A DNA stretch of 64,000 bases from NCBI RefSeq assembly GCF_988242995.1, contig NZ_OZ547043.1; one strand, given 5' to 3'. Below the pieces are notes generated by a model. That model ran no database searches. It was not told the DNA's origin and was given only the letters and a program-made list of their open reading frames with translations. Position numbers and translations under genes: made by a program. The stretch's first letter is position 1, and every line of letters begins with the position of its first letter. Positions 13,095-34,566 of the stretch are shown here, in pieces.

Positions 13095-13862
13095 TTATAG
13101 CGCCAGAACCGCCGTATTCAGCGTTTCTATCGGTGCCGGGCGTGAAAGAAACCAGCCTTGTGCGGCGAATGCGGGCGAATTCTGAACATCACGCCACTCT
13201 TCCGGCGTTTCTACACCCTCGACGATCACCCCGCGACAATAGCGATTCATGAGATGTAAAAGCTGAGAAAAGAGTGTGCGTCCTTCCGGCGACTGACGCA
13301 GCATCATAAACAGTTCTCGCGCGATTTTGATGTAGTCATAACGCACTTCACTTAGCGCAGAGAAATTTGCCATCCCGGTGCCAAAATCATCCAGCCACAG
13401 CGGGCCAAATTCACACATCGAGGCAAAGGTTGAATCTTTCGGCAGACGGATATGCTCCACCAGTTCGAAACGCAGCCAGGGAAGACGCTCAATCTGGCGC
13501 AGGATTTTTGGTTGCTGACGCAGGGCGATGAGCGTAGGTCCATCAATATTGACCGATGCCAGCAGGCCGTGCTCTATAAAGAAGTCGGCTTTTTGCGCCA
13601 GCAAATCAATCTGCTCTTTCACAACCTCCATCCGATGGCTGACGGTGATTTCAGTAAAATAGCGATCCGGCGGCAGGCGTTGCGAAGGGTTCAAGGGATG
13701 CGTGACCACCGTTAATAGCTCCACGGCCATTAACCGTCCGCATGTTTGATAGATCGGCTGCCAGGTGTAAGCACGCTCACACTGCAACCAAAAACGCCGT
13801 TCCTGCAAGCTCTCGATGCTTGCTTCAGGGTTGCTTATTCGCTGGATAACCTGCCTTATCAT
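13095..13862 (-). CDS. pdeH: c-di-GMP phosphodiesterase (EAL domain only), 255 aa
   Basis: Track ORF 13095..13907; conserved start MIRQVIQRISNPEASIESLQERRFWLQCERAY at codon 16; EAL-domain protein (yhjH). Confidence 0.93.
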   Translation of the reverse strand: MIRQVIQRISNPEASIESLQERRFWLQCERAYTWQPIYQTCGRLMAVELLTVVTHPLNPSQRLPPDRYFTEITVSHRMEVVKEQIDLLAQKADFFIEHGLLASVNIDGPTLIALRQQPKILRQIERLPWLRFELVEHIRLPKDSTFASMCEFGPLWLDDFGTGMANFSALSEVRYDYIKIARELFMMLRQSPEGRTLFSQLLHLMNRYCRGVIVEGVETPEEWRDVQNSPAFAAQGWFLSRPAPIETLNTAVLAL

Positions 13863-13910
13863 CAAAGATGTCCTGTGTTTAAAAGTGATGCTGCCCGGAC
13901 TCGACAAAGA

Positions 13911-13937
13911 TTATCGGCGCACAAGGGCAGAACTTTA
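13911..13937 (-). promoter_or_regulatory. sigma28 (FliA) class-3 flagellar promoter of pdeH
   Basis: On the minus strand: TAAA, a 15-bp spacer, then GCCGATAA (plus strand ttatcggc at 13911-13918, ttta at 13934-13937), about 50-75 bp upstream of the pdeH start. Confidence 0.7.
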
Positions 13938-14006
13938 CCGCCTGGCCGGGGTAAATTTCCCCACTCCACAACGGAATCTTTCAGGAATACGTTCTGGCTC
14001 AAAAAA

Positions 14007-14029
14007 ATAATGGAACACTGTTTTAATAT
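14007..14029 (+). promoter_or_regulatory. Putative KdgR operator upstream of kdgK
   Basis: Imperfect palindrome aataatggaacactgttttaatat resembles the KdgR box (TGAAACA...TGTTTCA half-sites), about 65-85 bp upstream of the kdgK ATG. Confidence 0.5.
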
Positions 14030-14093
14030 GGTTGACCAGCAAACCACCACAGCGCAAACTAACGCTAATTTTTTACAGATCAGGTTCACGACT

Positions 14094-15023
14094 ATGTCCA
14101 AAAAGATTGCCGTGATTGGCGAATGCATGATTGAGCTTTCCGAGAAAGGCGCGGACGTTAAGCGCGGTTTCGGCGGCGATACCCTGAACACTTCCGTCTA
14201 TATCGCCCGTCAGGTCGATCCTGCGGCATTAACCGTTCATTACGTAACGGCGCTGGGAACGGACAGTTTTAGCCAGCAGATGCTGGACGCCTGGCACGGC
14301 GAGAACGTTGATACTTCCCTGACCCAACGGATGGAAAACCGTCTGCCGGGCCTTTACTACATTGAAACCGACAGCACCGGCGAACGTACGTTCTACTACT
14401 GGCGTAACGAAGCCGCCGCCAAATTCTGGCTGGAGAGCGAGCAGTCTGCGGCGATTTGCGAAGAGCTGGCGAATTTCGATTATCTCTACCTGAGCGGGAT
14501 TAGCCTGGCGATCTTAAGCCCGACCAGCCGCGAGAAACTGCTTTCTTTGTTGCGCGAATGCCGCGCCAACGGCGGAAAAGTAATTTTCGACAATAACTAT
14601 CGTCCGCGCCTGTGGGCCAGCAAAGAAGAGACACAGCAGGTGTACCAGCAAATGCTGGAATGCACGGATATCGCCTTCCTGACGCTGGACGATGAAGACG
14701 CTCTGTGGGGTCAACAGCCGGTGGAAGACGTCATTGCACGTACCCATAACGCGGGCGTGAAAGAAGTGGTGGTGAAACGCGGGGCGGATTCTTGCCTGGT
14801 GTCCATTGCTGGCGAAGGGTTAGTGGATGTTCCGGCGGTGAAACTGCCGAAAGAAAAAGTGATCGATACCACCGCAGCTGGCGACTCTTTCAGTGCCGGT
14901 TATCTGGCGGTACGTTTGACGGGCGGCAGTGCGGAAAATGCGGCGAAACGCGGGCACCTGACCGCAAGTACCGTTATTCAGTATCGCGGCGCGATTATCC
15001 CGCGTGAGGCGATGCCGGCGTAA
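14094..15023 (+). CDS. kdgK: 2-dehydro-3-deoxygluconokinase, 309 aa
   Basis: Track ORF 13746..15023 (425 aa) has a long spurious N-terminal extension overlapping pdeH; the conserved start MSKKIAVIGECMIELSEKG (ATG at 14094) was used. PfkB-family sugar kinase. Confidence 0.93.
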   Translation: MSKKIAVIGECMIELSEKGADVKRGFGGDTLNTSVYIARQVDPAALTVHYVTALGTDSFSQQMLDAWHGENVDTSLTQRMENRLPGLYYIETDSTGERTFYYWRNEAAAKFWLESEQSAAICEELANFDYLYLSGISLAILSPTSREKLLSLLRECRANGGKVIFDNNYRPRLWASKEETQQVYQQMLECTDIAFLTLDDEDALWGQQPVEDVIARTHNAGVKEVVVKRGADSCLVSIAGEGLVDVPAVKLPKEKVIDTTAAGDSFSAGYLAVRLTGGSAENAAKRGHLTASTVIQYRGAIIPREAMPA

Positions 15024-15118
15024 AAGCAGCATATGCAAAAGGCTGGATAAAGTGTTACCCCTCTATCCAGCTCATCCATAAATACCTGATGGTTGTGCTA
15101 ACTCATCACCATCAGGCA

Positions 15119-16615
15119 TTACTGTGCGGGTGGAATATCCGTCACTTCAGGATGAACGTCATCCGTGGCGACAGAGGTGGTCGCAGCGGCGGTAGATGGG
15201 GTCATGATTTGATCCCAGGCCGCCTGCAACGCTTTCATGTTAAATTCCGGCTCGCCTTTCGGCTGCAGCAGTATTAACGCCATATCATTCGACAACTGCT
15301 GACGCAGATCCTGATTTAACATCTCCACCGTCAGGCTGTTAAGGAAATCCTGACGCAGTTTCTGATATTGCTCCGGCGCGATATCGACGACCTGATTTTG
15401 CAACGAACGCATCCGCTGCCCCATCAGAATATCGGTATCAGCTCGCGCATAGGCGGCAAACAGTTTCTGCAGCTCCAGTTTCTTTTGCGCCACTAACGCA
15501 TTGAACTCTTCTTCCGGCAGACCTTTATCGCGAACCTTCGCCAGTTCACGCGCCACCAGATTAAGGTTGCTGCTCAGCTTGTCGTTTGGTGATTCGATGT
15601 TAATGGCACACTGCGCACGCAGATACAGCACACGACAGTCAAATCCAAGACCGATATCTTTGCTGTTACTGGCGCTTAACGCTTGCTGAACATGCCAGAA
15701 CAGCGCCTCACGGGCCAGGTCCGCACGCCAGTAGCGCAGCAGTGCGGCTGATTCACGAATCGGCTGCCACGGCGTATCCCACATGATTGATAACCGGTCC
15801 TGACGCACCGCGTCAGTCATAATACTCACCGCTTCCGCACGCAGCGGAGAAAGCGTCGGCACCGGAGCCGGTGTTTCACGTTTGCCTTTCAGTTCGCCAA
15901 ACGTTTTATTGATTTGGTCGACGACCGAGCGCGCATCCACGTTTCCCACCACCAGCAGCGTCATTGCATCCGGGGTGTACCATTTCTGATAGAAATCTTT
16001 AATCTTTTCCGCTTCAACGGGTTGTTTCAGCGGATCGGCAGGATCGTGACCTAACAAGGTTGATCCTTTCAGACGATAGCGCCACCAGCCCTCTTTAGTA
16101 TCGGCAGGCCAGGTTGCCACCATGTCCTGACTTTGCAGCGCGTGGTTGATGGTTTCTGGCGTGATAGTCAGTTTGCCAGTGGCATTTGCCAGATAAGAGA
16201 GCGCTTCTTTCAGCAAGTCGTTACGGTTATTGGGCAAACTCAGATTAAACAGCGTGGTGTCATAAGAGACAATTACCGGCGGCATCGGGCGTTTAGGGTC
16301 GATCCCCTGCTGCCACAATGAACGCGCCTGTGCTGCTTCAAGGCCACCGCTTTGCGTTAACGCAATACGAGGGATGGCGTGGCTGTAACCGCTCTGTTGT
16401 GTACTTTCGGCGAGCGAACCGGTATTAACCAGCAGGCGAATTTCAACACGATCGCTGGGACGCTGGGGCGTGGTCAGCACTTGCCACTGTAAACCGTTGG
16501 AAAGCGTCCCCTGTTGCCATGCTGGATCAGGCTGGAGCGCATCTGCCTGCACATAGCCAGCAGTGGCCATCATCAGCAAACCGCCCGCTAAAAGTCGAAT
16601 TTTTGTGCCCTGCAT
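15119..16615 (-). CDS. yhjJ: Periplasmic M16-family zinc peptidase-like protein, 498 aa
   Basis: Track ORF MQGTKIRLLAGGLLMMATAGYVQA... with signal peptide; expected length. Confidence 0.9.
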   Translation of the reverse strand: MQGTKIRLLAGGLLMMATAGYVQADALQPDPAWQQGTLSNGLQWQVLTTPQRPSDRVEIRLLVNTGSLAESTQQSGYSHAIPRIALTQSGGLEAAQARSLWQQGIDPKRPMPPVIVSYDTTLFNLSLPNNRNDLLKEALSYLANATGKLTITPETINHALQSQDMVATWPADTKEGWWRYRLKGSTLLGHDPADPLKQPVEAEKIKDFYQKWYTPDAMTLLVVGNVDARSVVDQINKTFGELKGKRETPAPVPTLSPLRAEAVSIMTDAVRQDRLSIMWDTPWQPIRESAALLRYWRADLAREALFWHVQQALSASNSKDIGLGFDCRVLYLRAQCAINIESPNDKLSSNLNLVARELAKVRDKGLPEEEFNALVAQKKLELQKLFAAYARADTDILMGQRMRSLQNQVVDIAPEQYQKLRQDFLNSLTVEMLNQDLRQQLSNDMALILLQPKGEPEFNMKALQAAWDQIMTPSTAAATTSVATDDVHPEVTDIPPAQ

Positions 16616-16834: not shown

Positions 16835-18157
<1,323 letters not shown>

Positions 18158-18303
18158 TTATGGGGTACCTGCGGCCTTAAAATAACACCCAGACAACATC
18201 ACAGAAATGTACCTGGATCATAATTGAAACAAAAAGGTTAAAAAGTTTGAGCTGGCTCGCACAAACCAGCACTTTTTAAAGTTTTGTAATCAGTTTGGGG
18301 TAG

Positions 18304-20292
18304 CTACTTTTCTTCCAGGTAACTCTCTTCGAAGATTTCAATAGGGAGTGGGCGAGCAAAAAGGAAGCCCTGGGCAATACCAACGCCCGCTTTTGCCAGC
18401 CAGTCGCGTTGTGCTTCAGTCTCCACCCCTTCGGCAATCATTTGTAAGTTCAGGCTCTGCGCCAGCATGATAATTGCAGCAATCATGCTGCTATCTTCCG
18501 GCAAGCCTTCAACAAACATTTTGTCGATTTTCAGTACGTCGATTGGCAACGATTTCATATGCTGCAGCTGACGCAGCCCTGCGTAGCCCATGCCGAAATC
18601 ATCCAGCGCCACCCGAACTCCGGCATTGCGCAGCGGACGGAGGATTGCCACCGCAGCATGAGGGTCGTCAATACGTCGGCTTTCTGTCACTTCCAGAATC
18701 AGTGTTCCCGGCTGAATGCGATAGCGGGTTAACAGTTCCAGCATATCCGCCACCATATTTGGGTGCATCAGTTGCAGCGCTGAGAGGTTTACCGACAAGG
18801 GCAGCATAATGCCGCGCTCTTGCCAGGCAGCCAGCAATCGACAGGACTCTTCCAGCACCCAGTGACCAACGGTAACCATCAGCCCACAGCACTCAATGCG
18901 ATCGATTAAGCCATCCGGCAGATCCCAACTGCCATCCGGTTGCTGGATACGCAGTAACACTTCCGCACTGACCAGTTTACCGCTGTTCATCTCGACCTGT
19001 GGCTGTAACCAAATCGCAAACTGATGATTTTCCAGCGCATTAAGGATATCGCTCTCTTCCGTCAACCGCTGCTGGGCGGCTTCCATCTGCTGCGGATCAA
19101 AGAACTGAATCTGATTTTTGCCTTTATGGCGAGCGGTAAATGCCGCAGAAATAGCGCGACTGTAAAGCTGTTCGGCGGTGAGATCGCCGTAGAACATCGC
19201 CACGCCAATGCTACAGTGCGGACGGAGTTGAATACGTTCAATCGGCAGGCGCTCGCTCATGATAGTGAGCACTTGCTGACCCAAAGTGATTGCGTGCCAC
19301 GGTTCCTGTACACCGTTGGCAATGACAGCAAAGTCATAACCGCTAATCTGCGCGAGGATCATACGTGGCGACAGTACCGATTTGAGTTTTTCCACCAGCG
19401 TCAGCAGCAGAATTTCTCGTTGCGCCTCTTTCAGCACGCCCGCAGTATCACGCAGGGTTTCACAGGTGATAATCATCAGCGCGGTGGTTTGTTTACGCGC
19501 GACAACCTGCTCCAGCATCTCCATCAGCAAAGCTTTGTTCGGCAAATCCGACACCGGGAAGCGCATCGCGTTTTCGTTCTGTTCTTCATAATGGCGCTGC
19601 AGCAATTGCTGGTTGAGGTTGTAACTGCGCACCAGCATACCGATTTCATCATCCTGATGCAGACGCGGTAATGCCAGTTGGTGACCAACAAGCTCTTGGG
19701 CTGGGATGGCGTTTAGTTCGCGAGCAATATTGCGTAACGGATGCAAAATCAGGCGGTTAATGCACCAGCTAATCGCCACGGTCAATATTAACGACAAAAG
19801 TAAGTAAATGGTCACTAACGTTGAGAGGGTGCTCATCACGAACTTATACATACGGAAGGAATCCGCCTGTAGCACCAGATAGGCAATTGGCTGCGGATTT
19901 GCCGGACGTTCGAGCGAGTAGACGCCCAGCGAGATTTGCACCGGCAGCTCAAACAGGCGAGTAACCATTACCGGCACTGGCCGCTCTGGAATAAAACTTT
20001 TACGCAGCGCCTGGAACTGGTTAGGCAGCACTACATCGGCACGGCTGACCACGCCTGCCGGTTTAATGCTGGCAAGAATAGCTTCCGCTTCGGGAATATC
20101 GCCTTTCAAAATAGCTGAAGATAAGGGTTCGCGGACAGAGCGAGCAATGCTTTCCAGTTGCGTAGCCGTGTTATAGCGATTCTGCTGGACCAGATGGAAC
20201 AGCAAAACGGTGCAAAAAATAAAAACGAACACCAGGACAACGGCTGCCACCATTGCCATCTGCTTGATTGTTAACGAGCGACTTACGCGCAA
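18304..20292 (-). CDS. pdeK: Membrane-bound c-di-GMP phosphodiesterase (degenerate GGDEF + EAL), 662 aa in the longest frame
   Basis: Track [35 protein letters not shown]...; N-terminal TM segment, C-terminal EAL domain (yhjK). An in-frame Met 11-13 codons downstream is an alternative start. Confidence 0.9.
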
Positions 20293-20373: not shown

Positions 20374-23300
20374 TTACCAGTCGGCGTAAGGTATCAGCGG
20401 CTGCGGCGGTAAATCCATGTCACCCTGCCATCCGGCGGCGGAATAACGTACGTAGAGCAGGAAATGGCTGGGTGCGTAATCTTTTGCCTGCTGGATATCA
20501 ATTGCCGTGCCGACAAACCAGTTGGAAGTAACACGTCGTTCAAGTAATGCCCGCGCCGTGTAGCCAAAGCCCTGACTGCTGCCGCCATCGTTGGATTGCC
20601 GCGCAGCCTCTTCCTGCCAGTCGGTCGGGATCAGATTCATCAGCGGATAACGCGGCATGGTTTTGGTGCGTGAATGCGACCACGAGCCAGACGCCCCCAG
20701 CTCCCACGACCAGTTTTCCGTCCGCTCCCGCCACATCACCGGTATGGCAAACGACAGGTATTCCTGCGGGCTGTAGTAACCGCCCTGACCGAGTGAGTAG
20801 CCACTCAGGTCTTTGTCGTAATGCCAGATCATGTTGTTCAGGCCGATGGTGACGCGGCGATTGTTCTGGTTAATGACCTTATAGTAATAGCCCGTCATCC
20901 AGCGCACGCGCCAGTTATCTTCGACATTTTTACCGGTTAACTGGTCGCCACTAAGCGATGCCCAGACGCCGTTTGCTTCACCTTTATCGTAGCTCAGGCT
21001 TAGTCCCACGCCGTCGGCACGCACGCCGCCCCATTTTTTCCCGGTATTGCTCGGGGAGTCTTTTTGCCCGCCAAAGGCCAGCAAAGAACTGGAGATGGGC
21101 CGACGGTGGGCGTTAACGGTGTAACCCAGCGGCCCGATATCATCGCTGTAACTGATGCCGCCGACCACATCCACCACGTTGAAGCCCATCGGCGTGGTGC
21201 CGATATCCCAGCTCCAGACGTCATTTCGCCAGCCGACCGCCACGCTGGCACCGGAATCCGACTGGCTGCGGTTGCCGCTACAGTCCTGTAATGTACAGGT
21301 GCCCCAGTTGTCATCCCATTTACCATCGGCATTAGTGGAGAAACTGCCGACGTTCATATTGACGAAATCACTGCGAAAGAACATCCGCCCGTCAGAATAC
21401 GGCGCATCCACCTGCAACATAGTGGTGTGCGCTTTCAGATCGGAGTAACCACCGGTGCCGCTCGATCCCCAATAATCGTGCTCAAGGGTGACGTTAAGAT
21501 CCTGCTGGCGATAGAGGTCCGCCGCATCGCTGCGCACGCCGCGTTTCAGCCAGTCATCTTTCTCGTCATTGCGGGTCAGTCGGGTAAAGGTGTCGTTATC
21601 CTGTGGACGCATCGTGGTCACACCGGATGCAACCATGGCGTCTTTGTAGGTTTCCAGCGCCTGCGTTGGATCGCCCGCCTGCGCTTCAAACTTCGCACCG
21701 TCGCGCAGCACCATCGCACTTTCCATCGACGGCGGCTGAGATTTTGCCAGCGGGATCAACTGATTAAATGTCTGCTGCGCCGCTGCGGTATCGCCAAGCT
21801 GCGCCTGTGCCAGCGCCACGCGCCGCTGAGTGTTCAGCGAGGCGTTATTGGTGGCAGGCAGCTTCGCCAGCTGGCTACGTGCCGCCGCTTTGTCACCGGC
21901 AGCAATATCCACTTCCGTCAGACCAAGAATGGCATCGGCGTTAGTTGGCTCCCGCGTCAGGACATTCTGATATGCAGCGCGAGCGGCGGTGTAATCACGT
22001 CGCTGTTGCGCCCAGTCAGCCAGCGTGAGGTCTATGCGCGTGGAAGGTGGTTGCTGGCGCAGCATCGCTTCCGCTTCAGCTTCTTTGCCGCTTTCTCGCA
22101 GGCGATTAGCGGTTTCCAACACCTGATCGCTTTGCAGTCGATTAACCAGCTCCTGAATATTGCTGCTCCACTGCGCGCGCGGCAGGCTGTTGATATGCGC
22201 CAGCGCCGCTCTGTCCTGGTCATGACCAGAGAGATACAGCCCGTAAGCGTAAACCTGCTCCGGGTCGTTCGGCTTCTGCTGCGCCAGATTACGCATTAAC
22301 GTATCGGCCTGGCTACGTTGTCCGGCCTGCCAGAGATCCTGCGAAAGTCGGTAAGTAATCCATACGCTGCCGGGATCCAGCGCCAGTCGTTGCCGCTGAA
22401 GTGCTGCCGCCTGCGCCCATTTGCCCTGGTTTTCCAGTGCCTCTGCCTGCTGTGCCAGACGGTCGTTTTGTAGGCTGCGTTCGATATCATCAATGCTACG
22501 CCGCTGACTGGCAGAGAGCGAGGCGATAAACGCTTCAGCTTTTTCTGGCGATTGCTGGCGGTATATATTTGCCAGCCCGCGCACGGCGTTAGTGTTGCTA
22601 CTGTCCATACGCAGGGTCTGCTGGTAATAGCGTTCAGCGGCGGGATAATCTTTGCGCGCCATCGCCACATCGCCCAGCCCCAGCACTGCATAGCTGTCGG
22701 TGTTATCGACATTACGCGCCTGCTGGAACAGGCGTTCTGCCCGGTCAGGATTATTGGCTTTCAGCGCAGCATCGCCCTGCTGGATCGCCAGCCAGTAGCG
22801 GTTTACTTTCAGGAGACTGTTCCATTTGTCGTTGTTGCTGCTGTGCGGATCCAGGGCGAGGGCTTTTTCCAGATTCGCCACCGCATTAGCGCGATCGCCT
22901 TTCTGAGAATACGCCTGGCCCAGCGCCCCCAGAGCCTCACTGTCTTTCGGGTTCGCCCGCACCGCCTGTTGTAGTTCGGGAATGGCTTTACCCGCCATAC
23001 CAGAGTCCACCGCCGCTAAACCTTGCGCGCGAGCGCGGAAAGCAGGGTCGGCCAGCTGTTTTTGCTGTTCTGCCAGTTGCGATTGCGCCGCAGCTACGCT
23101 ATCGCCATCACTAAAGATCGAGAGATATTTTTTCAGCGCCGACACACTGGCATCGCTGACGGGCATGTCTTTAATCTGCCCGTACCAGATTTTAGAGGCC
23201 CCTTCGCGCCCGGCGTTTGATTTCGCCATCTGTTCCAGGACGGCAAAACCTTCGTCACGGCGATCGCTACTAAACAGCAATAGCGCCAGATTGTTTTGCA

Positions 23301-23847
23301 GGCCCGTATTGCCCGGCGTATCCGCATTAATGCGTTTTAGCTGATTAATCGCTTCGCCACGGCGAGCCGGAATTTTCGCCACCGTACTCCAGTACTCGAC
23401 GGCAATGTCACCTTCCGGCGGCGCACCGTTGAACAGTTTGTTGTAACTCGCCACAGCTTCTTCTGCATGACCAGTAGTCGCCTGCAATCTTGCCTGTTGC
23501 AGTGCCTGACGACCATCCGGCGTGGAAAGCAACATTGTGGTCCGCGACGATTTATACGCATTTGAACTCGGCGCTAACTGCGACAGCCGATCGAGCTGTT
23601 TTTGCGCGCCATCAATATCGCCCTGACGTAACAGAGAACGGAAACGGGCGGCAACGACTTCCGGGTTATTCGGATCAATAAGTTCCAGACGATACAACGA
23701 CTGTTGCACCAGGTCTTCACGATGGGTCGCTTCGCCTAACCGAACTTGCTCCAGCAACTGTTGCTGAGCGGTTGGTGCTGCCTCGACCATCGGCATGACG
23801 GCCAGACCGAGAGAAAGCGTGAATATGTTTAGTGTGAATTTGCGCAT
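20374..23847 (-). CDS. bcsC: Cellulose synthase outer-membrane subunit BcsC (TPR repeats + beta-barrel), 1157 aa
   Basis: Track [43 protein letters not shown]...; expected length; last gene of bcsQABZC. Confidence 0.95.
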
Positions 23848-24941: not shown

Positions 24942-27281
24942 TTACTCGTTATCCGGGTTAAGACGACGACGGCTGATAATACGCAGCAGACGCCACAGTA
25001 CCCATGCCAGCAGCACGACGCTGATTGCCGCCAGCACCGCCAGCAGAATCGGATGGTTTGCCAGCGCATACCATAAGCGTTCGAACCACGGCAGATGGCC
25101 AACGTAATAGACGTCGCCAACGCGTAGGCTATTGATACCGGACTCGCGGATCACCGCGACCGAACCGAACATGGTGGCGCGTTTGCCGCTATCGTTCACC
25201 GCATCGTTAAGCATTTCATAACCGCGTGGGCTATCTGCCAGCAGCGCAATCACGCTGCGCTGGTCGTTATACGGCGACTGGAAGCCAATCACCGCCGCCA
25301 TCGCACCGGAAGAGGTCAGCGTTGACTGGGTTTCTGCCGCGCGATCGCTCTCGTCCGGAACAATGCCGGGGAACGGGGTCTGGCGCATCGGCGTTTTCAC
25401 CCAGCTTTCGGTCGCCTGCACCAACAGGTCGATCTGCTTGTCGTCTTTCAGTTTGTCCGGGATACCACCGATGATCATGATGTCGGCATCTTTGCCCTGA
25501 ATGGTGCTGCCATCATCGGTCACCGTCAGATTAATCGCCGGGAAGCCCGCCTGTGCGCCGATAAAACCAACAGTATTCAGCAAGGTTTCCATCTGTGCTT
25601 CGTTAGGCGTTTTCGGCATCACGGTGATGGTTTGCGACAGATCCGCCATCCGGCTGAACGGGAAGCCCGCGTTAGCAAAGGCGCGTAGATCCGGCATCGG
25701 GATGAAGTGGTAATACTTCGAGAAGTCGATGGTGGAGTCGTCACCAATCACCACATGATTCTGCACCGGCTGGAAGGTAATACAGTTATCCACCGAACCG
25801 CCAGGCATCGGGTTCATATACTCAAAGTCAAAGCGCAGCTGGTTGGTCGCGCCCAGTTTCAGCGCCGGAATAGAGACATCCGTTTTGCCATCCAGCAAAC
25901 CTTGTAATACCGGAATCCGCAGCAGCAGGCGGTTCGCCTCCTGTTTGCTGCTCAGATTGAATGATTGCAGGAACTGGTTATTCAGGCTGATATCCATCCG
26001 CGAACTGTCTTTCACCGGCGGCATGGTGTAGCGGTAATTAATATCCATATCAATGCCGGTACTGCGCATCAGGTAGAGATCTGGCGGCAGGTTTAGCGAA
26101 ACATTAATCGCTGCTGGCTCAAGACCGCTGGATTGCAACTGTTCTTCATAGGTTTTCAGTTCACCAAAGGTGACCGGACGATCGGTACGCACCCAGTTCG
26201 GCGCATCGTACGGCTTACGCGGTAGCAGCGGTTTCACTTCATTCACTACCACGCTTTCACCACGGAACAGAATGTTACCCTGAGCGATACCTTTCGCTGC
26301 CTGCAACAGGTCTTTGTCGTCACGACCAAACACCACCAGCAGTTTGACGTAAGGATTCTGCGGATGGTTGATCATCTCAATCACCGGGGCTTTTACCGCC
26401 GGATGATCGCGCAGGAAATCCGGGCGTTTGTCATTGGTGGCAAAAACGATGGCATTGCGATCCGGCAATTGGTTATAGAGCACCGGGAAGTTCTGCCCAC
26501 GCCAGCCAGAACGCGAACCAAACCACGAGGCGACAATGGCAGATGCTTGTTGCAGCCCGACATCCGGCGCACCCGCAAAGACAATCGGCAAGGTGTTAGT
26601 ACGGTTATCACGCGGGTCAAAGAATGGTACCGGGAAGTGTGACAGGTCATTCTTCACATTCAGGGTCTGATAGGTCAAATCCAGTCCACTGCTCCGCCCA
26701 ACATCCAGCCAAAGCGTGGTGCTGGCCGGGTTTTCGCACACGTCCTGATAATGGCCGACAAACTCCAGCCGCACACGGTTGAAGTCGGTAATAAACAGTG
26801 GGTTAATGGGCATTTGCGCCAGCGTTTTTTTACCCAACTGTTCTTTGGTCACTGGCAGCACGCCCATCAGTTCATCATTGAGATAAACCTTTAACTGCGA
26901 CTGGACAGGCAGTAACGATGGCGATGGCGTGTATTCGAGGTTGAGCATCGCCTTCGTCACCACTTCATCGCTGCGCATACCAAACTCAATGCTGCCGTTC
27001 GGGTTAATGCCACGTAGCACCATGCTGCCCGGCGGCGGCGCAATTTGCGCAAAGGTCAGCTTCACATCACGCGAAGGACCGTTCTGCGCCACGATAGGGG
27101 CATCAGCGCCCTGCACGCCCGGCATCACTTGCCCAACCTGCGGATTTTGTTCCGTCTGGGCGGCTACAGCTGGCTCAGCATTGATCAGTGGTTGCGTTGC
27201 TGGCGTCGCCTGCGTCATGAAAGAGGGGAACGCACTCATCCCCATAGCCACTGCACAAATCCAGAATAGTTTTCTTTTCAT
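24942..27281 (-). CDS. bcsB: Cellulose synthase periplasmic subunit BcsB, 779 aa
   Basis: Track ORF 24942..27368 (808 aa); conserved start MKRKLFWICAVAMGMSAFPSFMTQA at codon 30. Confidence 0.94.
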   Translation of the reverse strand: MKRKLFWICAVAMGMSAFPSFMTQATPATQPLINAEPAVAAQTEQNPQVGQVMPGVQGADAPIVAQNGPSRDVKLTFAQIAPPPGSMVLRGINPNGSIEFGMRSDEVVTKAMLNLEYTPSPSLLPVQSQLKVYLNDELMGVLPVTKEQLGKKTLAQMPINPLFITDFNRVRLEFVGHYQDVCENPASTTLWLDVGRSSGLDLTYQTLNVKNDLSHFPVPFFDPRDNRTNTLPIVFAGAPDVGLQQASAIVASWFGSRSGWRGQNFPVLYNQLPDRNAIVFATNDKRPDFLRDHPAVKAPVIEMINHPQNPYVKLLVVFGRDDKDLLQAAKGIAQGNILFRGESVVVNEVKPLLPRKPYDAPNWVRTDRPVTFGELKTYEEQLQSSGLEPAAINVSLNLPPDLYLMRSTGIDMDINYRYTMPPVKDSSRMDISLNNQFLQSFNLSSKQEANRLLLRIPVLQGLLDGKTDVSIPALKLGATNQLRFDFEYMNPMPGGSVDNCITFQPVQNHVVIGDDSTIDFSKYYHFIPMPDLRAFANAGFPFSRMADLSQTITVMPKTPNEAQMETLLNTVGFIGAQAGFPAINLTVTDDGSTIQGKDADIMIIGGIPDKLKDDKQIDLLVQATESWVKTPMRQTPFPGIVPDESDRAAETQSTLTSSGAMAAVIGFQSPYNDQRSVIALLADSPRGYEMLNDAVNDSGKRATMFGSVAVIRESGINSLRVGDVYYVGHLPWFERLWYALANHPILLAVLAAISVVLLAWVLWRLLRIISRRRLNPDNE

Positions 27282-27291
27282 CGCGTTATCA

Positions 27292-29910
27292 TCATTGTTG
27301 AGCCAAAGCCTGATCCGATGGTTGTGCCGTTTCGCTCCGCGCCGGGCGGCGCGGAATAAACGATACAACCCAGGAAACCAGAGAAGTCAGCACACGGAAT
27401 ATGCCCTTCACCGAAGAAGGCGCAAACTCCGCCAGATGGCGGTAGCCACGGAAGCCGAGCTTCAGAATATCCAGCAGACTTTCCAGCGGCTTATCTTCCG
27501 GATAGCTGTCCTGCCAGAGCGCCCATGTATCCGCACGGGCAAACGTACACTGCACAAAATCGATATGTTGCTGGGTGGTGAGCGGCATTAATTTCAGCCC
27601 AACTTCATTACCCATCACGCGCGCCACCTGGGTGGGGAAGACGTATTCCTGCTGACCGCGTTTAAGCAACAGATTCACTTTCTGCCCTTCCAGAATCTGC
27701 GCCTGACCGTTGATCTTGATCCCCAAACCACCGTCGGAGAAATCCTGAACGGTACATGAGAAGAGGTGACCATCTTCGCGGGCAATTGCCGCGGGCATCG
27801 TCATCTCCACGCGGTGCGATCGGCGTACCTGTTTGCTTTCTACCGATACCGCAACTGCGCCGCCAAGAACAATCAGGTTGTAGAATACCCACACCATACT
27901 GACGACCACGGTGAGCATCTCGGTTGGCGGGCCATAGAAGTAGCGCCAGATGCCTACCGCAACGCCCACCAGGTTGAGCAGAACAAGGAAGATGTAGGGC
28001 CGCGAGATCACCCAGTCGACGTACTCTTCTTCCACCAGTCCACCTTTGGCGGTAACGTTAAATTTGCCTTTGTGCGGGTTAATCAGCGCCACCAGCGTCG
28101 GTGGTGCGATATACCACGCCAGCACCGTTTCGTAGATTTCACTCCAGAAAGAGTGGCGATATTTGCCCTGGATCTTGGAGTTGGTCAGGCTGGCATGGAT
28201 CATATGCGGCAGCACGAACAGGGCAATCATCAACGCTGGCGCATAGATGATGTAGGCATGAAGCAGCAGGAACGCCAGCGGCGCAGTCAGGAAGATCAGC
28301 CGTGGAATGCCCGACAAGAAGTGGAACATGGCGTTGACGTAACATAGCCGCTGAGCAAACTTCAGCCCTTTACCGGTGAGCGGGTTATCGAGACGAAAGA
28401 TTTGCACCATCCCGCGCGCCCAGCGAATACGCTGACCAATATGCGCCGACAGACTTTCGGTCGCCAGCCCCGCCGCCTGCGGAATACGCATATATGCAGA
28501 GGTGTAGCCACGACGGTGCAGGCGCAAAGAGGTATGCGCATCTTCAGTCACAGTTTCGACAGCAATGCCGCCAATTTCATCCAGCGGCTTACGGCGAATC
28601 ACCGCACAGGAACCGCAGAAGAAAGTGGCGTCCCACATATCGTTGCCATCCTGCACCAGACCATAGAACAGCGTGCCTTCGTTCGGTGTTTTACGAAATC
28701 GCCCCAGGTTGCGTTCAAACGGGTCCGGTGAGAAGAAGTGGTGCGGCGTCTGCATCATCGCCAGCTGTTTTTCTTTCAGGAACCAGCCCATGGTCATTTG
28801 CAGGAACGATCGCGTTGGTACGTGGTCGCAGTCGAAAATCGACACGAACTCGCCTTTGGCATATTTCAGCGCATTGTTGATGTTGCCCGCTTTCGCATGT
28901 TCATGAGTGGTGCGGGCGATATATTTCACCCCCACGTTTTGCGCAAACTGGCGAAACTCTTCCCTGCCGCCGTCATCGAGGATCCAGATGTTCAGTTTGT
29001 CTTTCGGCCAGTCGATACCCAGCGAGGCGTAAATGGTATTTTTCACCACGTTGAGATCTTCGTTGTAAGTCGGGACAAAGATATCCACCGACGGCCACAG
29101 CGACATATCTTTCGGCAATGGCACCGGCTGACGATTCAGCGGCCATACTACCTGGAAGTAGCCGAGCACGAGCACAATCCACGCGTACGTTTCAGCGAAC
29201 AGCAGAATAAGCCCGCACACCAGGCTGACCGGATCGTCCCAGTTCAGCGTAGAGGTGTAGCGCCACCAGATATAACGGCAAGAAACGGTCAGCGACAGCA
29301 CAATCAACATTAGCGCCGAGAAGCGCCCCGGCATCCGCCGTACGATCAGCGCTACACCCCACAGCAGCATCAGGAAGATAAACTGCGCCAGCGGGTTAAA
29401 CGGCTGGGTAACGCAGATTAACGCCAGAATCAGCGAGAAGGTGACGATGATACCGAGGATCAACCGCCGCGCCCCGGCGCTCAAATGACCGAGCTCTTTT
29501 TTCTCATCGAGATGCTGTGTTTTATGGCTAACGCGCTCAGGCAGCTCGTTCATCCATTGATGGTAACGTCCACGAATATTCTGCAGACCTGAAAATGTCC
29601 GCCTGTGCGGTTTCGGCGTTTCTTTGCGCGATGTACCGATCAGTAACCAGCATGTTTGAATGAGATAACGGACCGGGTCCAGCGGACGCGGACGCGAGGC
29701 GTTGATATGCGGATACAGGTTTTTATGTTCTGCGCGAATACGCTGCCAGCGCGGGTGCTCCAGCGGAATAAAAATCCAGGCCAGGATCAACCAAAAACAG
29801 CCGAGCGTCGCGCTGAAAGCCGACGCGCCGTGACGACGATAATCGCGATAACGCCCGATAAGCCGCGCGTTGACCGGCGGGATAAGCAACCACCGGGTCA
29901 GGATACTCAT
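27292..29910 (-). CDS. bcsA: Cellulose synthase catalytic subunit BcsA (GT2 + PilZ), 872 aa
   Basis: Track ORF MSILTRWLLIPPVNARLIGRYRDYRRHGASAF...; QxxRW-type glycosyltransferase with C-terminal PilZ domain. Confidence 0.96.
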   Translation of the reverse strand: MSILTRWLLIPPVNARLIGRYRDYRRHGASAFSATLGCFWLILAWIFIPLEHPRWQRIRAEHKNLYPHINASRPRPLDPVRYLIQTCWLLIGTSRKETPKPHRRTFSGLQNIRGRYHQWMNELPERVSHKTQHLDEKKELGHLSAGARRLILGIIVTFSLILALICVTQPFNPLAQFIFLMLLWGVALIVRRMPGRFSALMLIVLSLTVSCRYIWWRYTSTLNWDDPVSLVCGLILLFAETYAWIVLVLGYFQVVWPLNRQPVPLPKDMSLWPSVDIFVPTYNEDLNVVKNTIYASLGIDWPKDKLNIWILDDGGREEFRQFAQNVGVKYIARTTHEHAKAGNINNALKYAKGEFVSIFDCDHVPTRSFLQMTMGWFLKEKQLAMMQTPHHFFSPDPFERNLGRFRKTPNEGTLFYGLVQDGNDMWDATFFCGSCAVIRRKPLDEIGGIAVETVTEDAHTSLRLHRRGYTSAYMRIPQAAGLATESLSAHIGQRIRWARGMVQIFRLDNPLTGKGLKFAQRLCYVNAMFHFLSGIPRLIFLTAPLAFLLLHAYIIYAPALMIALFVLPHMIHASLTNSKIQGKYRHSFWSEIYETVLAWYIAPPTLVALINPHKGKFNVTAKGGLVEEEYVDWVISRPYIFLVLLNLVGVAVGIWRYFYGPPTEMLTVVVSMVWVFYNLIVLGGAVAVSVESKQVRRSHRVEMTMPAAIAREDGHLFSCTVQDFSDGGLGIKINGQAQILEGQKVNLLLKRGQQEYVFPTQVARVMGNEVGLKLMPLTTQQHIDFVQCTFARADTWALWQDSYPEDKPLESLLDILKLGFRGYRHLAEFAPSSVKGIFRVLTSLVSWVVSFIPRRPARSETAQPSDQALAQQ

Positions 29911-30659
29911 GATTTACTCCCGACTGGCGTTTTCAGCCCGGAATAGTTCAACAGGCACCAGTTAGCCAGCGTCAGTATCTCTTCAGCCGCCAGCGCATCA
30001 CTGCGATATTCACCGACTGGTTGCTTAGCCGCCAGGCATTCAGCCATCGCTTCATCACGATGAATGAGCATCGGCAGTAATCGGCGCTGGCTTTGCAACC
30101 AAAGCTGGTAAATATCGTCCTGAACTTGACTGCCGATACGGAAGTCATTAATCAAAATATGCGCGCCATCCGGCAGCGCCTGCTGATGCAGCCGGATATG
30201 GCAGTTGGCATCCACATTGACGATTGCCAGCGAGTGATCGCACAAACTCAGCAGCTGGTGGGTTATCTGCGAGGAATCACGCGGTAAGTCGATTAAAATC
30301 CAATGGTAACGCCCGCTGGCTTTTAGTTGCTGTAAGCCGGAGCAAATATCGCTCAGCCGGGTTTGCCAGTGCTGTGGATTTTCTTGTTCTTCAATGGATA
30401 ACTGACCAAAAGGCAGCAAATCGAGTTGCGAGGTATAGCGCAACCCAGCGTCACGCCAGTCCTGGCCATCCAGCATAGCTCTGGCCCAGCCCTGACGGTG
30501 GGTAAAATCAACGTTAAATGACAGGCGCAACAAGTTGTCCGGGCAGGCATCGACCACCAGGACATTTTCTCCCAACATTTGTAATGACCAGGCTAATGCG
30601 GCGGTGATGGTTGTTGTCCCCACGCCTCCCCGCACCCCCTGCAATCCCAGTACGGCCAT
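29907..30659 (-). CDS. bcsQ: Cellulose biosynthesis protein BcsQ (MinD/ParA-like ATPase), 250 aa, apparently intact
   Basis: Track ORF MAVLGLQGVRGGVGTTTITAALAWSLQ... is open for 250 codons with Walker-A-like GGVGTTT; overlaps the bcsA start by 4 bp. Confidence 0.9.
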   Translation of the reverse strand: MAVLGLQGVRGGVGTTTITAALAWSLQMLGENVLVVDACPDNLLRLSFNVDFTHRQGWARAMLDGQDWRDAGLRYTSQLDLLPFGQLSIEEQENPQHWQTRLSDICSGLQQLKASGRYHWILIDLPRDSSQITHQLLSLCDHSLAIVNVDANCHIRLHQQALPDGAHILINDFRIGSQVQDDIYQLWLQSQRRLLPMLIHRDEAMAECLAAKQPVGEYRSDALAAEEILTLANWCLLNYSGLKTPVGSKS

Positions 30660-30670
30660 TCACCAATCCC

Positions 30671-30859
30671 CTACTTTTGTTGCGCAAACTCTGCCAGCAA
30701 CGGCCAGCGTTTTAATGCCGCGGCCAACTGTTCGCGTTGGGAAATATCGGCATAATCAATATCAGGCAGTGAAAATGCCTGCTTTAACGCCAAAATATCA
30801 TTCTGGAAGATATAGCCTATCGCGGGATCAGGCAGAGTATCTGGTTCATTGTTATTCAT
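30671..30859 (-). CDS. bcsR: Cellulose biosynthesis protein BcsR, 62 aa
   Basis: Track ORF 30671..30901 starts at a non-ATG codon; the conserved protein starts MNNNEPDTLPDPAIGYIFQNDILALKQAF (codon 15). Confidence 0.85.
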   Translation of the reverse strand: MNNNEPDTLPDPAIGYIFQNDILALKQAFSLPDIDYADISQREQLAAALKRWPLLAEFAQQK

Positions 30860-31130
30860 TTGCTTGATCCCTATGAAATAACCGTACCGTTCATGAGACA
30901 ATTCTAACCGTGAGCATTTCGCCGGTTTATTGTTTACGGCGAGACGGGAATTTGCTCACTTTTTGACTTTCCGTTACGCAACAAAAAAAGTTAAAAACGA
31001 AAAGACTAAAATCACACGTCTTGTGACCTGCTAAATTGATTCACATGCTAAATCTGATAAGTTTTAATTTCAATGGTAGGTTTATTTCTTAGCTTTCGCT
31101 AGTAAACTGATAATCAGACAAAATGATGAC

Positions 31131-32702
31131 ATGAGGGACATTGTGGACCCTGTATTCTCTATCGGTATCTCATCATTATGGGATGAGCTGCGACATATGC
31201 CAGCAGGCGGCGTCTGGTGGTTTAACGTCGATCGCCATGAAGATGCTATCAGTCTGGCGAATCAAACAATTGCATCCCAGGCTGAAACCGCACACGTCGC
31301 GGTCATTAGCATGGACAGCGATCCGGCGAAAATCTTTCAATTAGATGATTCTCAAGGGCCGGAAAAAATAAAATTATTTTCAATGCTAAATCATGAAAAA
31401 GGTCTATACTATTTGGCCCGTGATTTGCAGTGTTCTATTGATCCCCATAATTACCTTTTTATTCTTGTTTGCGCAAATAACGCATGGCAAAACATTCCTG
31501 CCGAGCGGCTTCGCTCATGGTTGGATAAAATGAATAAATGGAGCAGGTTAAACCATTGTTCGCTTTTGGTAATTAATCCCGGAAATAATAACGATAAACA
31601 ATTTTCATTGTTGCTTGAGGAATACCGTTCACTTTTTGGTCTTGCCAGTTTGCGTTTTCAGGGCGACCAACATTTGCTGGATATTGCCTTCTGGTGCAAC
31701 GAAAAAGGGGTCAGCGCCCGTCAGCAGCTTAGCGTTCAGCAACAAAAGGGTATCTGGACCTTAGTTCAAAGCGAAGAGGCGGAGATCCAACCACGCAGCG
31801 ACGAAAAACGCATTCTGAGTAATGTTGCTGTACTGGAAGGTGCGCCGCCGCTATCAGAACACTGGCAACTGTTCAACAATAACGAAGTCCTGTTCAATGA
31901 AGCCCGTACCGCTCAGGCGGCGACGGTGGTCTTTTCTTTACAACAAAATGCGCAAATCGAGCCACTGGCCCGCAGCATTCATACTCTGCGTCGCCAGCGC
32001 GGTAGTGCGATGAAAATCCTCGTACGGGAAAATACCGCTAGCCTGCGCGCCACCGATGAACGTTTGTTATTGGCCTGCGGTGCAAATATGGTTATCCCAT
32101 GGAATGCCCCACTCTCCCGCTGTCTGACGATGATCGAAAGCGTGCAAGGGCAGAAGTTTAGTCGCTATGTGCCGGAAGATATCACTACCTTGCTGTCAAT
32201 GACCCAGCCGCTCAAACTGCGTGGTTTCCAGAAGTGGGATGTGTTCTGTAATGCCGTCAACAACATGATGAATAACCCTCTATTACCTGCCCACGGTAAA
32301 GGCGTTCTGGTTGCCCTACGTCCGGTACCGGGTATCCGCGTTGAGCAAGCCCTGACGCTGTGTCGCCCTAACCGCACCGGCGATATCATGACTATTGGCG
32401 GTAATCGGCTGGTGCTGTTTCTCTCATTCTGTCGGATTAACGATCTGGATACCGCGTTGAATCATATTTTCCCATTGCCGACTGGCGACATTTTCTCAAA
32501 CCGTATGGTCTGGTTTGAAGATGATCAAATCAGTGCCGAGCTGGTGCAGATGCGCCTGCTTGCCCCAGAACAATGGGGCATGCCGCTGCCTTTAACGCAA
32601 AGTTCTAAACCGGTCATCAATGCCGAGCACGATGGTCGCCACTGGCGACGAATACCAGAACCAATGCGACTGTTAGATGATGCTGTGGAGCGCTCATCAT
32701 GA
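31131..32702 (+). CDS. bcsE: c-di-GMP-binding cellulose biosynthesis protein BcsE (GIL domain), 523 aa
   Basis: Track [42 protein letters not shown]...; divergent from bcsR. Confidence 0.94.
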
Positions 32703-32890
32703 TGACCATCAGCGATATCATTGAAATTATTGTCGTTTGCGCACTGATATTTTTCCCGCTGGGCTATCTGGCGCGGCACTCTTTGCGACGCATTCGCGAC
32801 ACCTTACGTTTGTTCTTTGCTAAACCTCGTTATGTTAAACCGGCCGGGACGTTACGCCGCACGGAAAAAGCCAGGGCAACCAAAAAATGA
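32699..32890 (+). CDS. bcsF: Small membrane protein BcsF, 63 aa
   Basis: Track [36 protein letters not shown]...; 4-bp overlaps with bcsE and bcsG (translational coupling). Confidence 0.88.
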
Positions 32891-34566
32891 CTCAATTTAC
32901 GCAAAATACCGCCATGCCTTCTTCCCTCTGGCAATACTGGCGCGGTCTTTCCGGCTGGAACTTCTATTTTCTGGTTAAGTTCGGCCTGTTGTGGGCGGGA
33001 TATCTTAACTTCCATCCGCTCCTCAATCTGGTGTTTGCCGCGTTTCTGCTGATGCCCATTCCGCGCTACAGCCTGCATCGCTTACGCCACTGGATTGCCC
33101 TGCCGATCGGCTTTGCTTTGTTCTGGCATGACACCTGGTTGCCTGGCCCGGAAAGCATAATGAGCCAGGGTTCGCAGGTGGCGGGGTTCAGTACCGATTA
33201 TTTAATCGACCTTGTCACACGCTTTATTAACTGGCAGATGATTGGGGCCATTTTTGTTTTATTAGTGGCCTGGTTATTCCTGTCACAATGGATTCGCATT
33301 ACCGTTTTTGTGGTTGCCATTCTGCTATGGCTGAACGTACTTACCCTGGCGGGACCAAGTTTCTCCTTGTGGCCAGCCGGTCAACCGACGACCACTGTAA
33401 CAACGACGGGTGGTAACGCAGCGGCAACCGTTGCGGCGACGGGTGGCGCACCGGTAGTGGGTGATATGCCCGCACAAACTGCACCGCCAACAACGGCGAA
33501 TCTTAACGCCTGGCTGAATAATTTCTATAACGCGGAGGCGAAACGTAAATCGACCTTCCCGTCTTCGCTGCCCGCTGATGCTCAGCCATTTGAACTACTG
33601 GTGATTAATATCTGTTCGCTTTCCTGGTCGGATATTGAAGCCGCCGGGTTGATGTCGCATCCGCTGTGGTCGCATTTCGATATTGAGTTCAAGAACTTTA
33701 ACTCCGCCACCTCCTACAGTGGCCCGGCGGCGATCCGTTTACTGCGCGCCAGCTGCGGGCAGACTTCGCACACTAATCTGTATCAACCGGCAAATAACGA
33801 CTGCTATCTGTTTGATAACCTGTCGAAACTGGGCTTTACCCAGCACCTGATGATGGGACATAACGGCCAGTTCGGCGGTTTTTTGAAAGAAGTTCGCGAA
33901 AATGGCGGCATGCAGAGCGAATTGATGGATCAAACAAATCTGCCGGTTATTTTGCTGGGCTTTGATGGTTCGCCGGTTTATGACGATACCGCCGTGCTTA
34001 ACCGCTGGCTGGACGTTACCGAAAAAGATAAAAACAGCCGTAGTGCCACGTTCTACAACACGCTTCCACTGCATGACGGCAACCATTATCCGGGCGTCAG
34101 CAAAACAGCGGATTACAAAGCGCGAGCGCAGAAATTCTTTGATGAGCTGGACGCCTTCTTTACTGAACTGGAGAAATCGGGTCGTAAAGTGATGGTGGTC
34201 GTGGTGCCGGAACACGGTGGCGCGCTGAAGGGCGACAGAATGCAGGTATCTGGCCTACGTGATATCCCTAGCCCGTCTATCACAGACGTCCCCGTTGGGG
34301 TGAAATTCTTCGGCATGAAGGCACCACATCAGGGGGCACCGATTGTCATCGACCAACCGAGCAGCTTCCTGGCTATCTCCGATCTGGTGGTTCGCGTTCT
34401 TGATGGCAAGATTTTCTCCGAAGACAATGTTGACTGGAAAAAACTCACCAGTGGGTTACCACAAACAGCACCGGTCTCCGAGAACTCAAATGCAGTAGTT
34501 ATTCAATACCAGGATAAACCGTACGTTCGCCTGAACGGCGGCGACTGGGTGCCTTACCCGCAATAA
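32887..34566 (+). CDS. bcsG: Cellulose phosphoethanolamine transferase BcsG, 559 aa
   Basis: Track [43 protein letters not shown]...; membrane N-terminus plus periplasmic alkaline-phosphatase-like domain. Confidence 0.94.

Follow-up and report, generated by a model that had tools for sequence, protein, structure and literature searches.

The region at positions 13095–34566 of the window (the whole stretch of 64,000 nucleotides that was analysed) is almost certainly the core-genome cellulose secretion locus of Escherichia coli, of Type II (E. coli-like), comprising bcsRQABZC and the divergent bcsEFG plus conserved neighbours. The Type II system was reportedly defined by Romling and Galperin in 2015. 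The stop codon of pdeH, a minus-strand gene, has its last base at 13095, and bcsG ends at 34566; the gene order between these positions is pdeH-kdgK-yhjJ-dctA-pdeK-bcsCZBAQR / bcsEFG (15 genes). The features are as follows.

13095..13862, minus strand: pdeH (yhjH), stand-alone EAL c-di-GMP phosphodiesterase of 255 aa (Pfam EAL 8.8e-33, motifs, K-12 comparison)
13911..13937, minus strand: putative sigma28 (FliA) class-3-type promoter of pdeH, TAAAGTTC-N11-GCCGATAA (consensus match and conservation)
14094..15023, plus strand: kdgK, 2-dehydro-3-deoxygluconokinase, intervening and unrelated to c-di-GMP (Pfam PfkB 1.5e-73, annotation)
15119..16615, minus strand: yhjJ, M16-family peptidase-like, intervening (Pfam Peptidase_M16_C / M16, annotation)
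16835..18121, minus strand: dctA, C4-dicarboxylate transporter, intervening (Pfam SDF 1.7e-118, annotation)
18304..20292, minus strand: pdeK (yhjK; PGAP name hmsP), membrane GAPES3-HAMP-GGDEF(degenerate)-EAL phosphodiesterase (Pfam, motifs, transmembrane prediction)
20374..23847, minus strand: bcsC, outer-membrane TPR and beta-barrel cellulose export subunit (Pfam BCSC_C 4e-120 and TPR repeats; full length, 99.0% amino-acid identity to K-12)
23829..24935, minus strand: bcsZ, periplasmic GH8 endoglucanase (Pfam Glyco_hydro_8 2.5e-161)
24942..27281, minus strand: bcsB, periplasmic co-catalytic subunit, docking partner of PdeK and DgcC (Pfam BcsB 3e-223; PMC8461298, PMC4646962, PMC7397504)
27292..29910, minus strand: bcsA, GT2 cellulose synthase with C-terminal PilZ (Pfam Glycos_transf_2, Cellulose_synt, PilZ 8.6e-15)
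29907..30659, minus strand: bcsQ, MinD/ParA-like ATPase (Pfam CBP_BcsQ 1.1e-114; codon 6 is Leu, TAG in K-12)
30671..30859, minus strand: bcsR (yhjR), small regulatory subunit, first gene of bcsRQABZC (Pfam CBP_BcsR 2.8e-17)
31131..32702, plus strand: bcsE, cytosolic c-di-GMP receptor with GIL domain (Pfam CBP_BcsE 4e-227, 755 bits)
32699..32890, plus strand: bcsF, small single-pass membrane subunit (Pfam CBP_BcsF 1.9e-34; 100% identical to K-12)
32887..34566, plus strand: bcsG, membrane-anchored phosphoethanolamine transferase modifying cellulose (Pfam CBP_BcsG 6.7e-236; full length)

Conservation and integrity of the locus

Of 5426 complete E. coli genomes, megablast found the 21,472-base region in 5424; in 5318 of them a single place covered at least 80% of the region. 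The best identity, reached in several complete genomes, was 99.3%. In this strain the locus is intact, in the sense of full-length ORFs with conserved motifs, and some 98% of the complete E. coli genomes likewise have an intact locus. Its alignment with K-12 is colinear, with a nucleotide identity of about 98% overall (96.5–100% per gene against MG1655). Compared gene by gene, 15 of 15 genes have the MG1655 length, no internal stops and an amino-acid identity of 98.4–100%; relative to K-12, BcsC carries 11 substitutions and BcsB 10. The window itself is colinear with K-12 3665298–3729800, where no further GGDEF, EAL or PilZ gene is annotated, and its sole sizeable insertion is an IS200-like element. 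An Rfam scan of positions 10000–38000 returned two rdlD antitoxin RNAs only, and thus neither a c-di-GMP riboswitch nor another RNA in the cluster. Simple scans for sigma70 promoters and terminators gave fewer sites than shuffled sequence, or no more, and yielded no reliable promoters.

A sequence-only reading of the window had described an intact and established arrangement, with c-di-GMP genes clustered around the cellulose operon within 21 kb. The clustering was borne out at exact coordinates, the gene lengths and lack of internal stops bear out the intactness, and the arrangement is indeed the established one of E. coli. The Pfam search that it had proposed recovered EAL in PdeH, GAPES3-HAMP-GGDEF-EAL in PdeK, PilZ in BcsA and the BcsE (GIL) family in BcsE.

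Because every gene is full length, bcsQ included, the locus should, judging from its sequence, be able to make pEtN-cellulose; the strain is unlike K-12 at bcsQ and so probably cellulose-competent. We consider it quite unlikely that the module only looks intact and is silent or defective here, through regulatory or missense changes that are invisible to ORF inspection. In favour of such a defect, BcsC, BcsB, BcsA and PdeK show several residue differences from their K-12 counterparts. Against it, no signature residue is missing, several complete genomes match the region at 99.3% identity, and where this was checked it is K-12 that has the derived state and the window the common one (residue 599 of PdeK is E in this strain and in most orthologues). 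Everything in this picture has been published before, from the locus and its c-di-GMP logic to the control of pdeH by sigma28 and the interaction of PdeK with BcsB, and nothing here is new. The result thus has little weight as a discovery; its practical use is that the strain is shown not to be K-12-like at bcsQ.

Receptors of c-di-GMP

As is established, BcsA polymerises glucose only with c-di-GMP bound to its C-terminal PilZ domain. This domain spans aa 694–790 (nt 27541–27831; 55.4 bits) and holds both RxxxR (R696RSHR700) and DxSxxG (D723FSDGG728), and the catalytic motifs D360CD, T455ED, Q493RIRW and FFCGS (430–434) are present as well. BcsE carries the I-site-like motif R415TGD (nt 32373–32384) and a second motif, R306ATD; both motifs and the c-di-GMP sites of BcsE/BcsRQ are described in PMC8892547. 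In the established scheme BcsE, with these two RxxD sites, forms together with BcsR and BcsQ a cytosolic vestibule round the PilZ domain of BcsA that retains the nucleotide.

The sequence-only reading had counted three receptors. BcsA PilZ and BcsE hold by Pfam and motifs, whereas BcsB drops out by topology and literature. That BcsB is a genuine third receptor is suggested by its names, which are 'cyclic di-GMP-binding regulatory protein BcsB' as RefSeq product and 'Cyclic di-GMP-binding protein' as PDB molecule, but we regard this as wholly improbable. The protein has one predicted transmembrane segment, which is C-terminal (738–770 of 779) and leaves a cytoplasmic tail of about 12 residues, and a Pfam search found the BcsB periplasmic family domain only, with no PilZ, GGDEF, EAL or GIL domain. 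According to reviews (PMC8461298, PMC4646962), BcsB is a periplasmic protein with carbohydrate-binding domains, and it is the PilZ domain of BcsA that binds c-di-GMP. BcsB is not a c-di-GMP receptor, and its name is a legacy label. It matches the E. coli cryo-EM chains 6yg8/7lby over its full length (1767 bits). BcsB is the periplasmic partner, which does not bind c-di-GMP and offers a docking surface for the local sink, PdeK, and for DgcC, the local source with its gene elsewhere in the genome; both enzymes bind BcsB (PMC7397504).

Two phosphodiesterases and a putative flagellar promoter

The Pfam EAL match of PdeH scores 114.1 bits against a gathering cut-off of 31.3, and the signature residues E48LL, N105, E133/E136, D158D159FGTG, K179, E215GVE218 and Q235 are present. 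Its tripeptide is ELL rather than EAL, and where ExLxR has Arg it has Val (ELLTV), as in the active K-12 enzyme; motif-reading alone is thus not decisive. A single substitution, V186M, separates it from K-12 PdeH, and from this 99.6% identity PdeH is predicted to hydrolyse c-di-GMP. K-12 PdeH is described as the main c-di-GMP phosphodiesterase (PMC4238805, PMC8892547) and keeps the c-di-GMP pool low (PMC8892547).

The promoter that the sequence-only reading had recognised upstream of pdeH was confirmed as a match. It ends 48 nt upstream of the ATG (13862) and has one mismatch to the consensus TAAAGTTT-N11-GCCGATAA (15/16 positions) with the 11-nt spacing. No second match occurs in the 64 kb, where chance alone would give 0.05. 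Both boxes are present in 27 of 27 loci from five genera (Escherichia, Citrobacter, Kosakonia, Pseudescherichia-like and UBA7338), with 15 of the 16 box positions invariant and 10 of the 11 spacer positions variable. Fixed boxes around a free spacer are a clear phylogenetic footprint at this putative sigma28 site. The passage of PMC4238805 on yhjH, citing Ko and Park 2000, Frye 2006 and Girgis 2007, lists it as a class 3 FliA-dependent gene. In the established scheme PdeH is the stand-alone EAL 'master' phosphodiesterase; with a class 3 flagellar promoter of the sigma28 type, it holds the global c-di-GMP pool low in motile cells and so affects cellulose only indirectly.

PdeK lies directly beside bcsC, as had been claimed, on the same strand and with a gap of 81 bases (20292 and 20374); the simple scan, whose matches did not exceed those in shuffled sequence, found no terminator in this gap. 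Pfam detected GAPES3, a weak HAMP, GGDEF (2.7e-11, 43.9 bits) and EAL (3.8e-60, 203.6 bits), and two transmembrane segments are predicted, one on either side of the periplasmic domain. The EAL domain (aa 415–648; nt 18349–19050) holds E444VLLR, N502, E534/E537, D564D565FGMG (564–569), K588, E621GVE624 and Q641, motifs that almost all of the 29 orthologues compared have kept. The tripeptide is E444-V-L. In vitro, PdeK has phosphodiesterase activity that depends on E431/V432 and E611 in the 649-aa numbering (PMC7397504), which correspond to E444/V445 and E624 here. A literal EAL is thus absent from both enzymes (ELL in PdeH, EVL in PdeK), although both keep the catalytic Glu and the remaining signature residues; the refutation proposed by the sequence-only reading, a failure to find the catalytic EAL motifs, would if taken literally wrongly reject both.

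The GGDEF fold of PdeK is detected, but its active-site motif is SGYDF (aa 317–321), which fails the test for an intact GG(D/E)EF, and the domain is called degenerate in PMC7397504. It would be wrong to class PdeK as a cyclase. A cluster that both makes and breaks c-di-GMP, with the GGDEF domain of PdeK as its source, was ruled out by this motif and by PMC7397504. Neither the cluster nor the 64-kb window holds a diguanylate cyclase. The 'turnover' genes of the earlier description are therefore right as to degradation, with two EAL enzymes, and wrong as to synthesis: with the GGDEF domain of PdeK degenerate, the cluster holds only c-di-GMP-degrading enzymes. The dedicated cyclase DgcC and the regulator CsgD, which are required to switch cellulose on, are encoded outside the window. 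PdeK itself, encoded 81 bp downstream of bcsC, combines an active EAL phosphodiesterase with a non-catalytic, degenerate GGDEF domain and a periplasmic GAPES3 sensor.

Linkage of pdeH and comparison with known systems

Three unrelated genes (kdgK, yhjJ and dctA) separate pdeH from pdeK, so that the proximity of pdeH may be plain synteny. Alternatively, the whole 21 kb could be a selected 'c-di-GMP supermodule', in which pdeH is retained near bcs and pdeK for advantageous co-inheritance or co-regulation of this global sink with the cellulose machinery. K-12 has 29 GGDEF/EAL genes, and two of them lie inside 21.5 kb where 0.13 are expected (P(>=2) ~0.008, a rough value that ignores conserved synteny); the chance that such a gene directly neighbours a given cluster is ~0.013, with the same reservation. 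All orthologous loci of sufficient length keep the order pdeK-dctA-yhjJ-kdgK-pdeH-yhjG, and the order from pdeK to pdeH is kept across five genera. The single-protein scan of genome contigs reached close relatives only (Escherichia, Citrobacter, Kosakonia, Phytobacter and Pseudescherichia). The remaining matches, from Photobacterium and Vibrio, were unrelated EAL proteins of ~30% identity without shared synteny and were set aside. Common descent by itself would lead one to expect a conserved gene order in enterobacterial genera as close as these.

Further observations make a selected unit that includes pdeH very unlikely. Of the three intervening genes, one runs in the opposite direction, and the simple scan shows a terminator-like hairpin after dctA, although its terminator matches do not exceed those in shuffled sequence. 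The sigma28 promoter of pdeH is its own and ties it to flagella rather than cellulose, and the documented role of PdeH is global pool control and YcgR/motility (PMC4238805, PMC8892547). Among the two enzymes, a functional tie to cellulose synthase is documented for pdeK only. In the Citrobacter freundii complex, moreover, pdeK is retained at full length and with its catalytic residues intact, along with the entire pdeK-dctA-yhjJ-kdgK-pdeH block, while a sigma54 regulator, a Ser/Thr transporter and a methionine gamma-lyase take the place of bcs beside pdeK; the linkage of pdeK and pdeH is thus independent of bcs. A further reading, which we consider unlikely, is that PdeK has a conserved role independent of an adjacent cellulose machine or, alternatively, that the pdeK–pdeH linkage is itself the selected unit. 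If bcs is truly absent from these genomes and not relocated, PdeK must have another target.

Compared with known systems, no difference was detected from the Type II Bcs system reviewed in PMC8892547: the distinguishing BcsE and BcsG, the BcsR, BcsQ and BcsF subunits and the core BcsA, BcsB, BcsZ and BcsC are all present. The K-12 MG1655 locus (b3525–b3538; bcsQ pseudo, bcsR = yhjR) has the same genes, order, strands and lengths. It differs in bcsQ, which is intact here (Leu6) and has TAG in K-12, a stop codon reported in PMC8461298; in PdeK residue 599, which is E here and G in K-12; and in the ldrD/rdlD module 3' of bcsG, which is duplicated here. With flagellar class 3 sigma28 promoters and the PdeH/YcgR motility brake, pdeH shares 15 of 16 consensus positions, and its FliA dependence here rests on the literature. 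In their study of the local DgcC/PdeK signalling module at cellulose synthase, Richter et al. (2020, PMC7397504) mutated the EVL motif and the catalytic Glu; PdeK here has both, the latter as E624. The source half of the module, dgcC, lies outside the window, and only the sink is clustered with bcs.

Gene content and enzymatic capacity of the region

We transferred RefSeq annotation from the best-matching genome and from E. coli K-12 MG1655, with which the window, a segment of an E. coli chromosome, is colinear (3,665,298-3,729,800; ~98% nucleotide identity). A sequence-only reading had proposed a c-di-GMP cluster at 13095-34566, and its boundaries coincide exactly with the ends of pdeH and bcsG.

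Genes of the region (transferred RefSeq annotation)
13095-13862, minus strand, pdeH
14094-15023, plus strand, kdgK
15119-16615, minus strand, yhjJ
16835-18121, minus strand, dctA
18304-20292, minus strand, pdeK
20374-23847, minus strand, bcsC
23829-24935, minus strand, bcsZ
24942-27281, minus strand, bcsB
27292-29910, minus strand, bcsA
29907-30659, minus strand, bcsQ
30671-30859, minus strand, bcsR
31131-32702, plus strand, bcsE
32699-32890, plus strand, bcsF
32887-34566, plus strand, bcsG

The observation is confirmed and its interpretation is largely right, with four corrections: BcsB is not to be counted as a receptor, the literal EAL tripeptide is missing from both enzymes, PdeK has a degenerate GGDEF domain, and pdeH is a neighbour by synteny.

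In Pfam searches, PdeH has an EAL domain (114 bits), and PdeK has GAPES3, a weak HAMP, GGDEF (44 bits) and EAL (204 bits). The signature residues are E48-L-L, N105, E133/E136, DDFGTG 158-163, K179, EGVE 215-218 and Q235 in PdeH, and E444-V-L-L-R, N502, E534/E537, DDFGMG 564-569, K588, EGVE 621-624 and Q641 in PdeK. The catalytic residues are thus present in both proteins, whereas the literal tripeptide is found in neither, so that the refutation proposed earlier, a failure to find catalytic EAL motifs in pdeH or pdeK, has to be taken as referring to catalytic residues. Among PdeK orthologues the tripeptide differs (EVL, EAL, EQL), while the remaining motifs are conserved in nearly all of the 29 compared. 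When Richter et al. (PMC7397504) mutated PdeK, its phosphodiesterase activity proved to depend on the residues numbered E431/V432 and E611 in a 649-aa form; counted on 662 aa, as here, they are E444/V445 and E624. At residue 599 of PdeK (18496-18498), the window and most orthologues examined have Glu (PED) and K-12 has Gly (PGD), thus the K-12 reference holds a derived variant inside the EAL domain.

The GGDEF motif of PdeK reads SGYDF and has been published as degenerate. Of the proposed c-di-GMP turnover, degradation therefore stands but synthesis does not: judged from its motifs, the cluster is predicted to encode two enzymes that degrade c-di-GMP and none that makes it. By colinearity with annotated K-12, the window contains no other GGDEF/EAL genes, which places the dedicated cyclase DgcC outside it.

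Receptors of c-di-GMP

Three receptors had been proposed, and two of these are supported. BcsA combines GT2 and cellulose-synthase domains with a PilZ domain (55 bits, aa 694-790) that has both signatures, RRSHR 696-700 and DFSDGG 723-728, and BcsE contains the R415TGD motif as well as the second site R306ATD (PMC8892547). The remaining gene products match the Pfam families BcsB, BcsC, BcsE, BcsF, BcsG, BcsQ, BcsR and GH8.

For BcsB, Pfam detects no domain beyond the BcsB family domain. A hydropathy scan finds one hydrophobic segment (738-770 of 779 residues), which, with the sequence end ...LWRLLRIISRRRLNPDNE, leaves about a dozen cytoplasmic residues. BcsB has been described as periplasmic with carbohydrate-binding domains, and c-di-GMP binding is assigned to the BcsA PilZ domain (PMC4646962, PMC8461298). 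The protein matches BcsB chains of E. coli cryo-EM structures over its full length (1767 bits), and these are still named 'Cyclic di-GMP-binding protein'. Domains, topology and reviews together indicate that the receptor assignment of BcsB reflects a legacy name and not a function. Its contribution to signalling is instead to provide the surface on which PdeK and DgcC dock (PMC7397504).

The pdeH promoter and the meaning of the clustering

The recognisable sigma28 promoter reported for pdeH is well supported. The site, TAAAGTTC-TGCCCTTGTGC-GCCGATAA (13937-13911, minus strand), stops 48 nt short of the pdeH start codon (ATG) and has one mismatch to the consensus TAAAGTTT-N11-GCCGATAA; at two mismatches or fewer it is the single match in 64 kb (0.05 expected). 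Loci orthologous to that of pdeK, 29 in number, were retrieved from Escherichia, Citrobacter, Kosakonia, Phytobacter and Pseudescherichia. The stretch preceding pdeH is included in 26 of these, and every one of the 26 has the site. Its 18 distinct versions share 15 of the 16 box positions and a constant spacing of 11 nt, whereas 10 of 11 spacer positions vary. Such a pattern would be expected for a functional sigma-factor site and agrees with the literature, in which yhjH (pdeH) is a class 3 gene expressed under FliA (PMC4238805). In Citrobacter amalonaticus S646 (fetched locus L027, 16567-16829) the distance from the site to pdeH, which it precedes, is 236 nt, compared to ~49-58 nt elsewhere, which implies a ~190-nt insertion in the leader.

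By a rough calculation, 29 GGDEF/EAL genes in 4.64 Mb give 0.13 expected per 21.5 kb, a probability of ~0.008 for at least two in such a stretch, and ~0.013 for one directly adjoining a given cluster. The adjacency of pdeK to bcs has functional backing, as PdeK interacts with BcsB and serves as the local sink. As to pdeH, between it and pdeK stand three genes of unrelated function, for a sugar kinase, a protein resembling M16 peptidases and a transporter of dicarboxylates; it has its own flagellar promoter, and it is documented to keep global c-di-GMP levels low while cells are motile (PMC8892547, PMC4238805). All orthologous loci that reach far enough show the order pdeK-dctA-yhjJ-kdgK-pdeH-yhjG, as common descent predicts among close genera. 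In 11 loci of the C. freundii complex (L013, L015-L022, L029, L048), this block is kept with a full-length pdeK and intact PdeK motifs, and bcs does not adjoin; upstream of pdeK are dppABCDF, a sigma54-dependent regulator, a Ser/Thr transporter and methionine gamma-lyase, in this order (e.g. L018, 1-9929). Thus, the pdeK-pdeH linkage is independent of neighbouring bcs genes, and the evidence points to pdeH as a neighbour by synteny, not a demonstrated part of the cellulose module.

At the Citrobacter koseri NCTC10786 locus (L033), bcsZ, dctA and pdeH matches are fragmentary, pdeK has 66% identity, and bcsB and bcsC have no match, which points to assembly errors or to decay of the region as a whole.

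Comparison with K-12 and the species

Several neighbouring features differ from K-12. After bcsG, the ldrD/rdlD type I toxin-antitoxin module is a tandem duplicate (34569-35357), as in strain ECA64, whereas K-12 has one copy. A ~0.7-kb insertion lies between wecH and yiaA (60377-61085), and at 55519-55559 the IS150 that interrupts hokA/sokA in K-12 is absent, which may leave this strain with an uninterrupted hok/sok module.

Features outside the cellulose locus
34569-34868 and 35052-35351, ldrD/rdlD copies, 300 nt each, 94% identical, 483 nt apart, with two identical terminator-like hairpins
34809-34874 and 35292-35357, rdlD, two Rfam matches
60481-60990, minus strand, IS200-like Y1 transposase ORF inside the wecH-yiaA insertion (Pfam Y1_Tnp, 7e-37)

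Among 5585 places matching 13095-34566 in the E. coli genome collection, 130 are plasmid-borne, so that portions of the region, presumably bcs genes, are carried on E. coli plasmids too. Horizontal transfer of bcs clusters is the subject of a 2025 preprint (10.1101/2025.05.09.653004).

The whole module had been called intact, and notable for it. Open reading frames and motifs are indeed intact, but this is the usual state of the species: the region is matched in 5424 of 5426 complete E. coli genomes, with at least 80% covered at one place in 5318 (top identity 99.3%). It represents published E. coli biology and is already known. Gene by gene, lengths and start codons equal those of K-12, no internal stops occur, and amino-acid identity is 98.4-100%. 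The sole qualitative difference is codon 6 of bcsQ, which encodes Leu in the window and is a stop in K-12, where bcsQ is annotated as a pseudogene; this stop is the published reason for the absence of cellulose in K-12 (PMC8461298).
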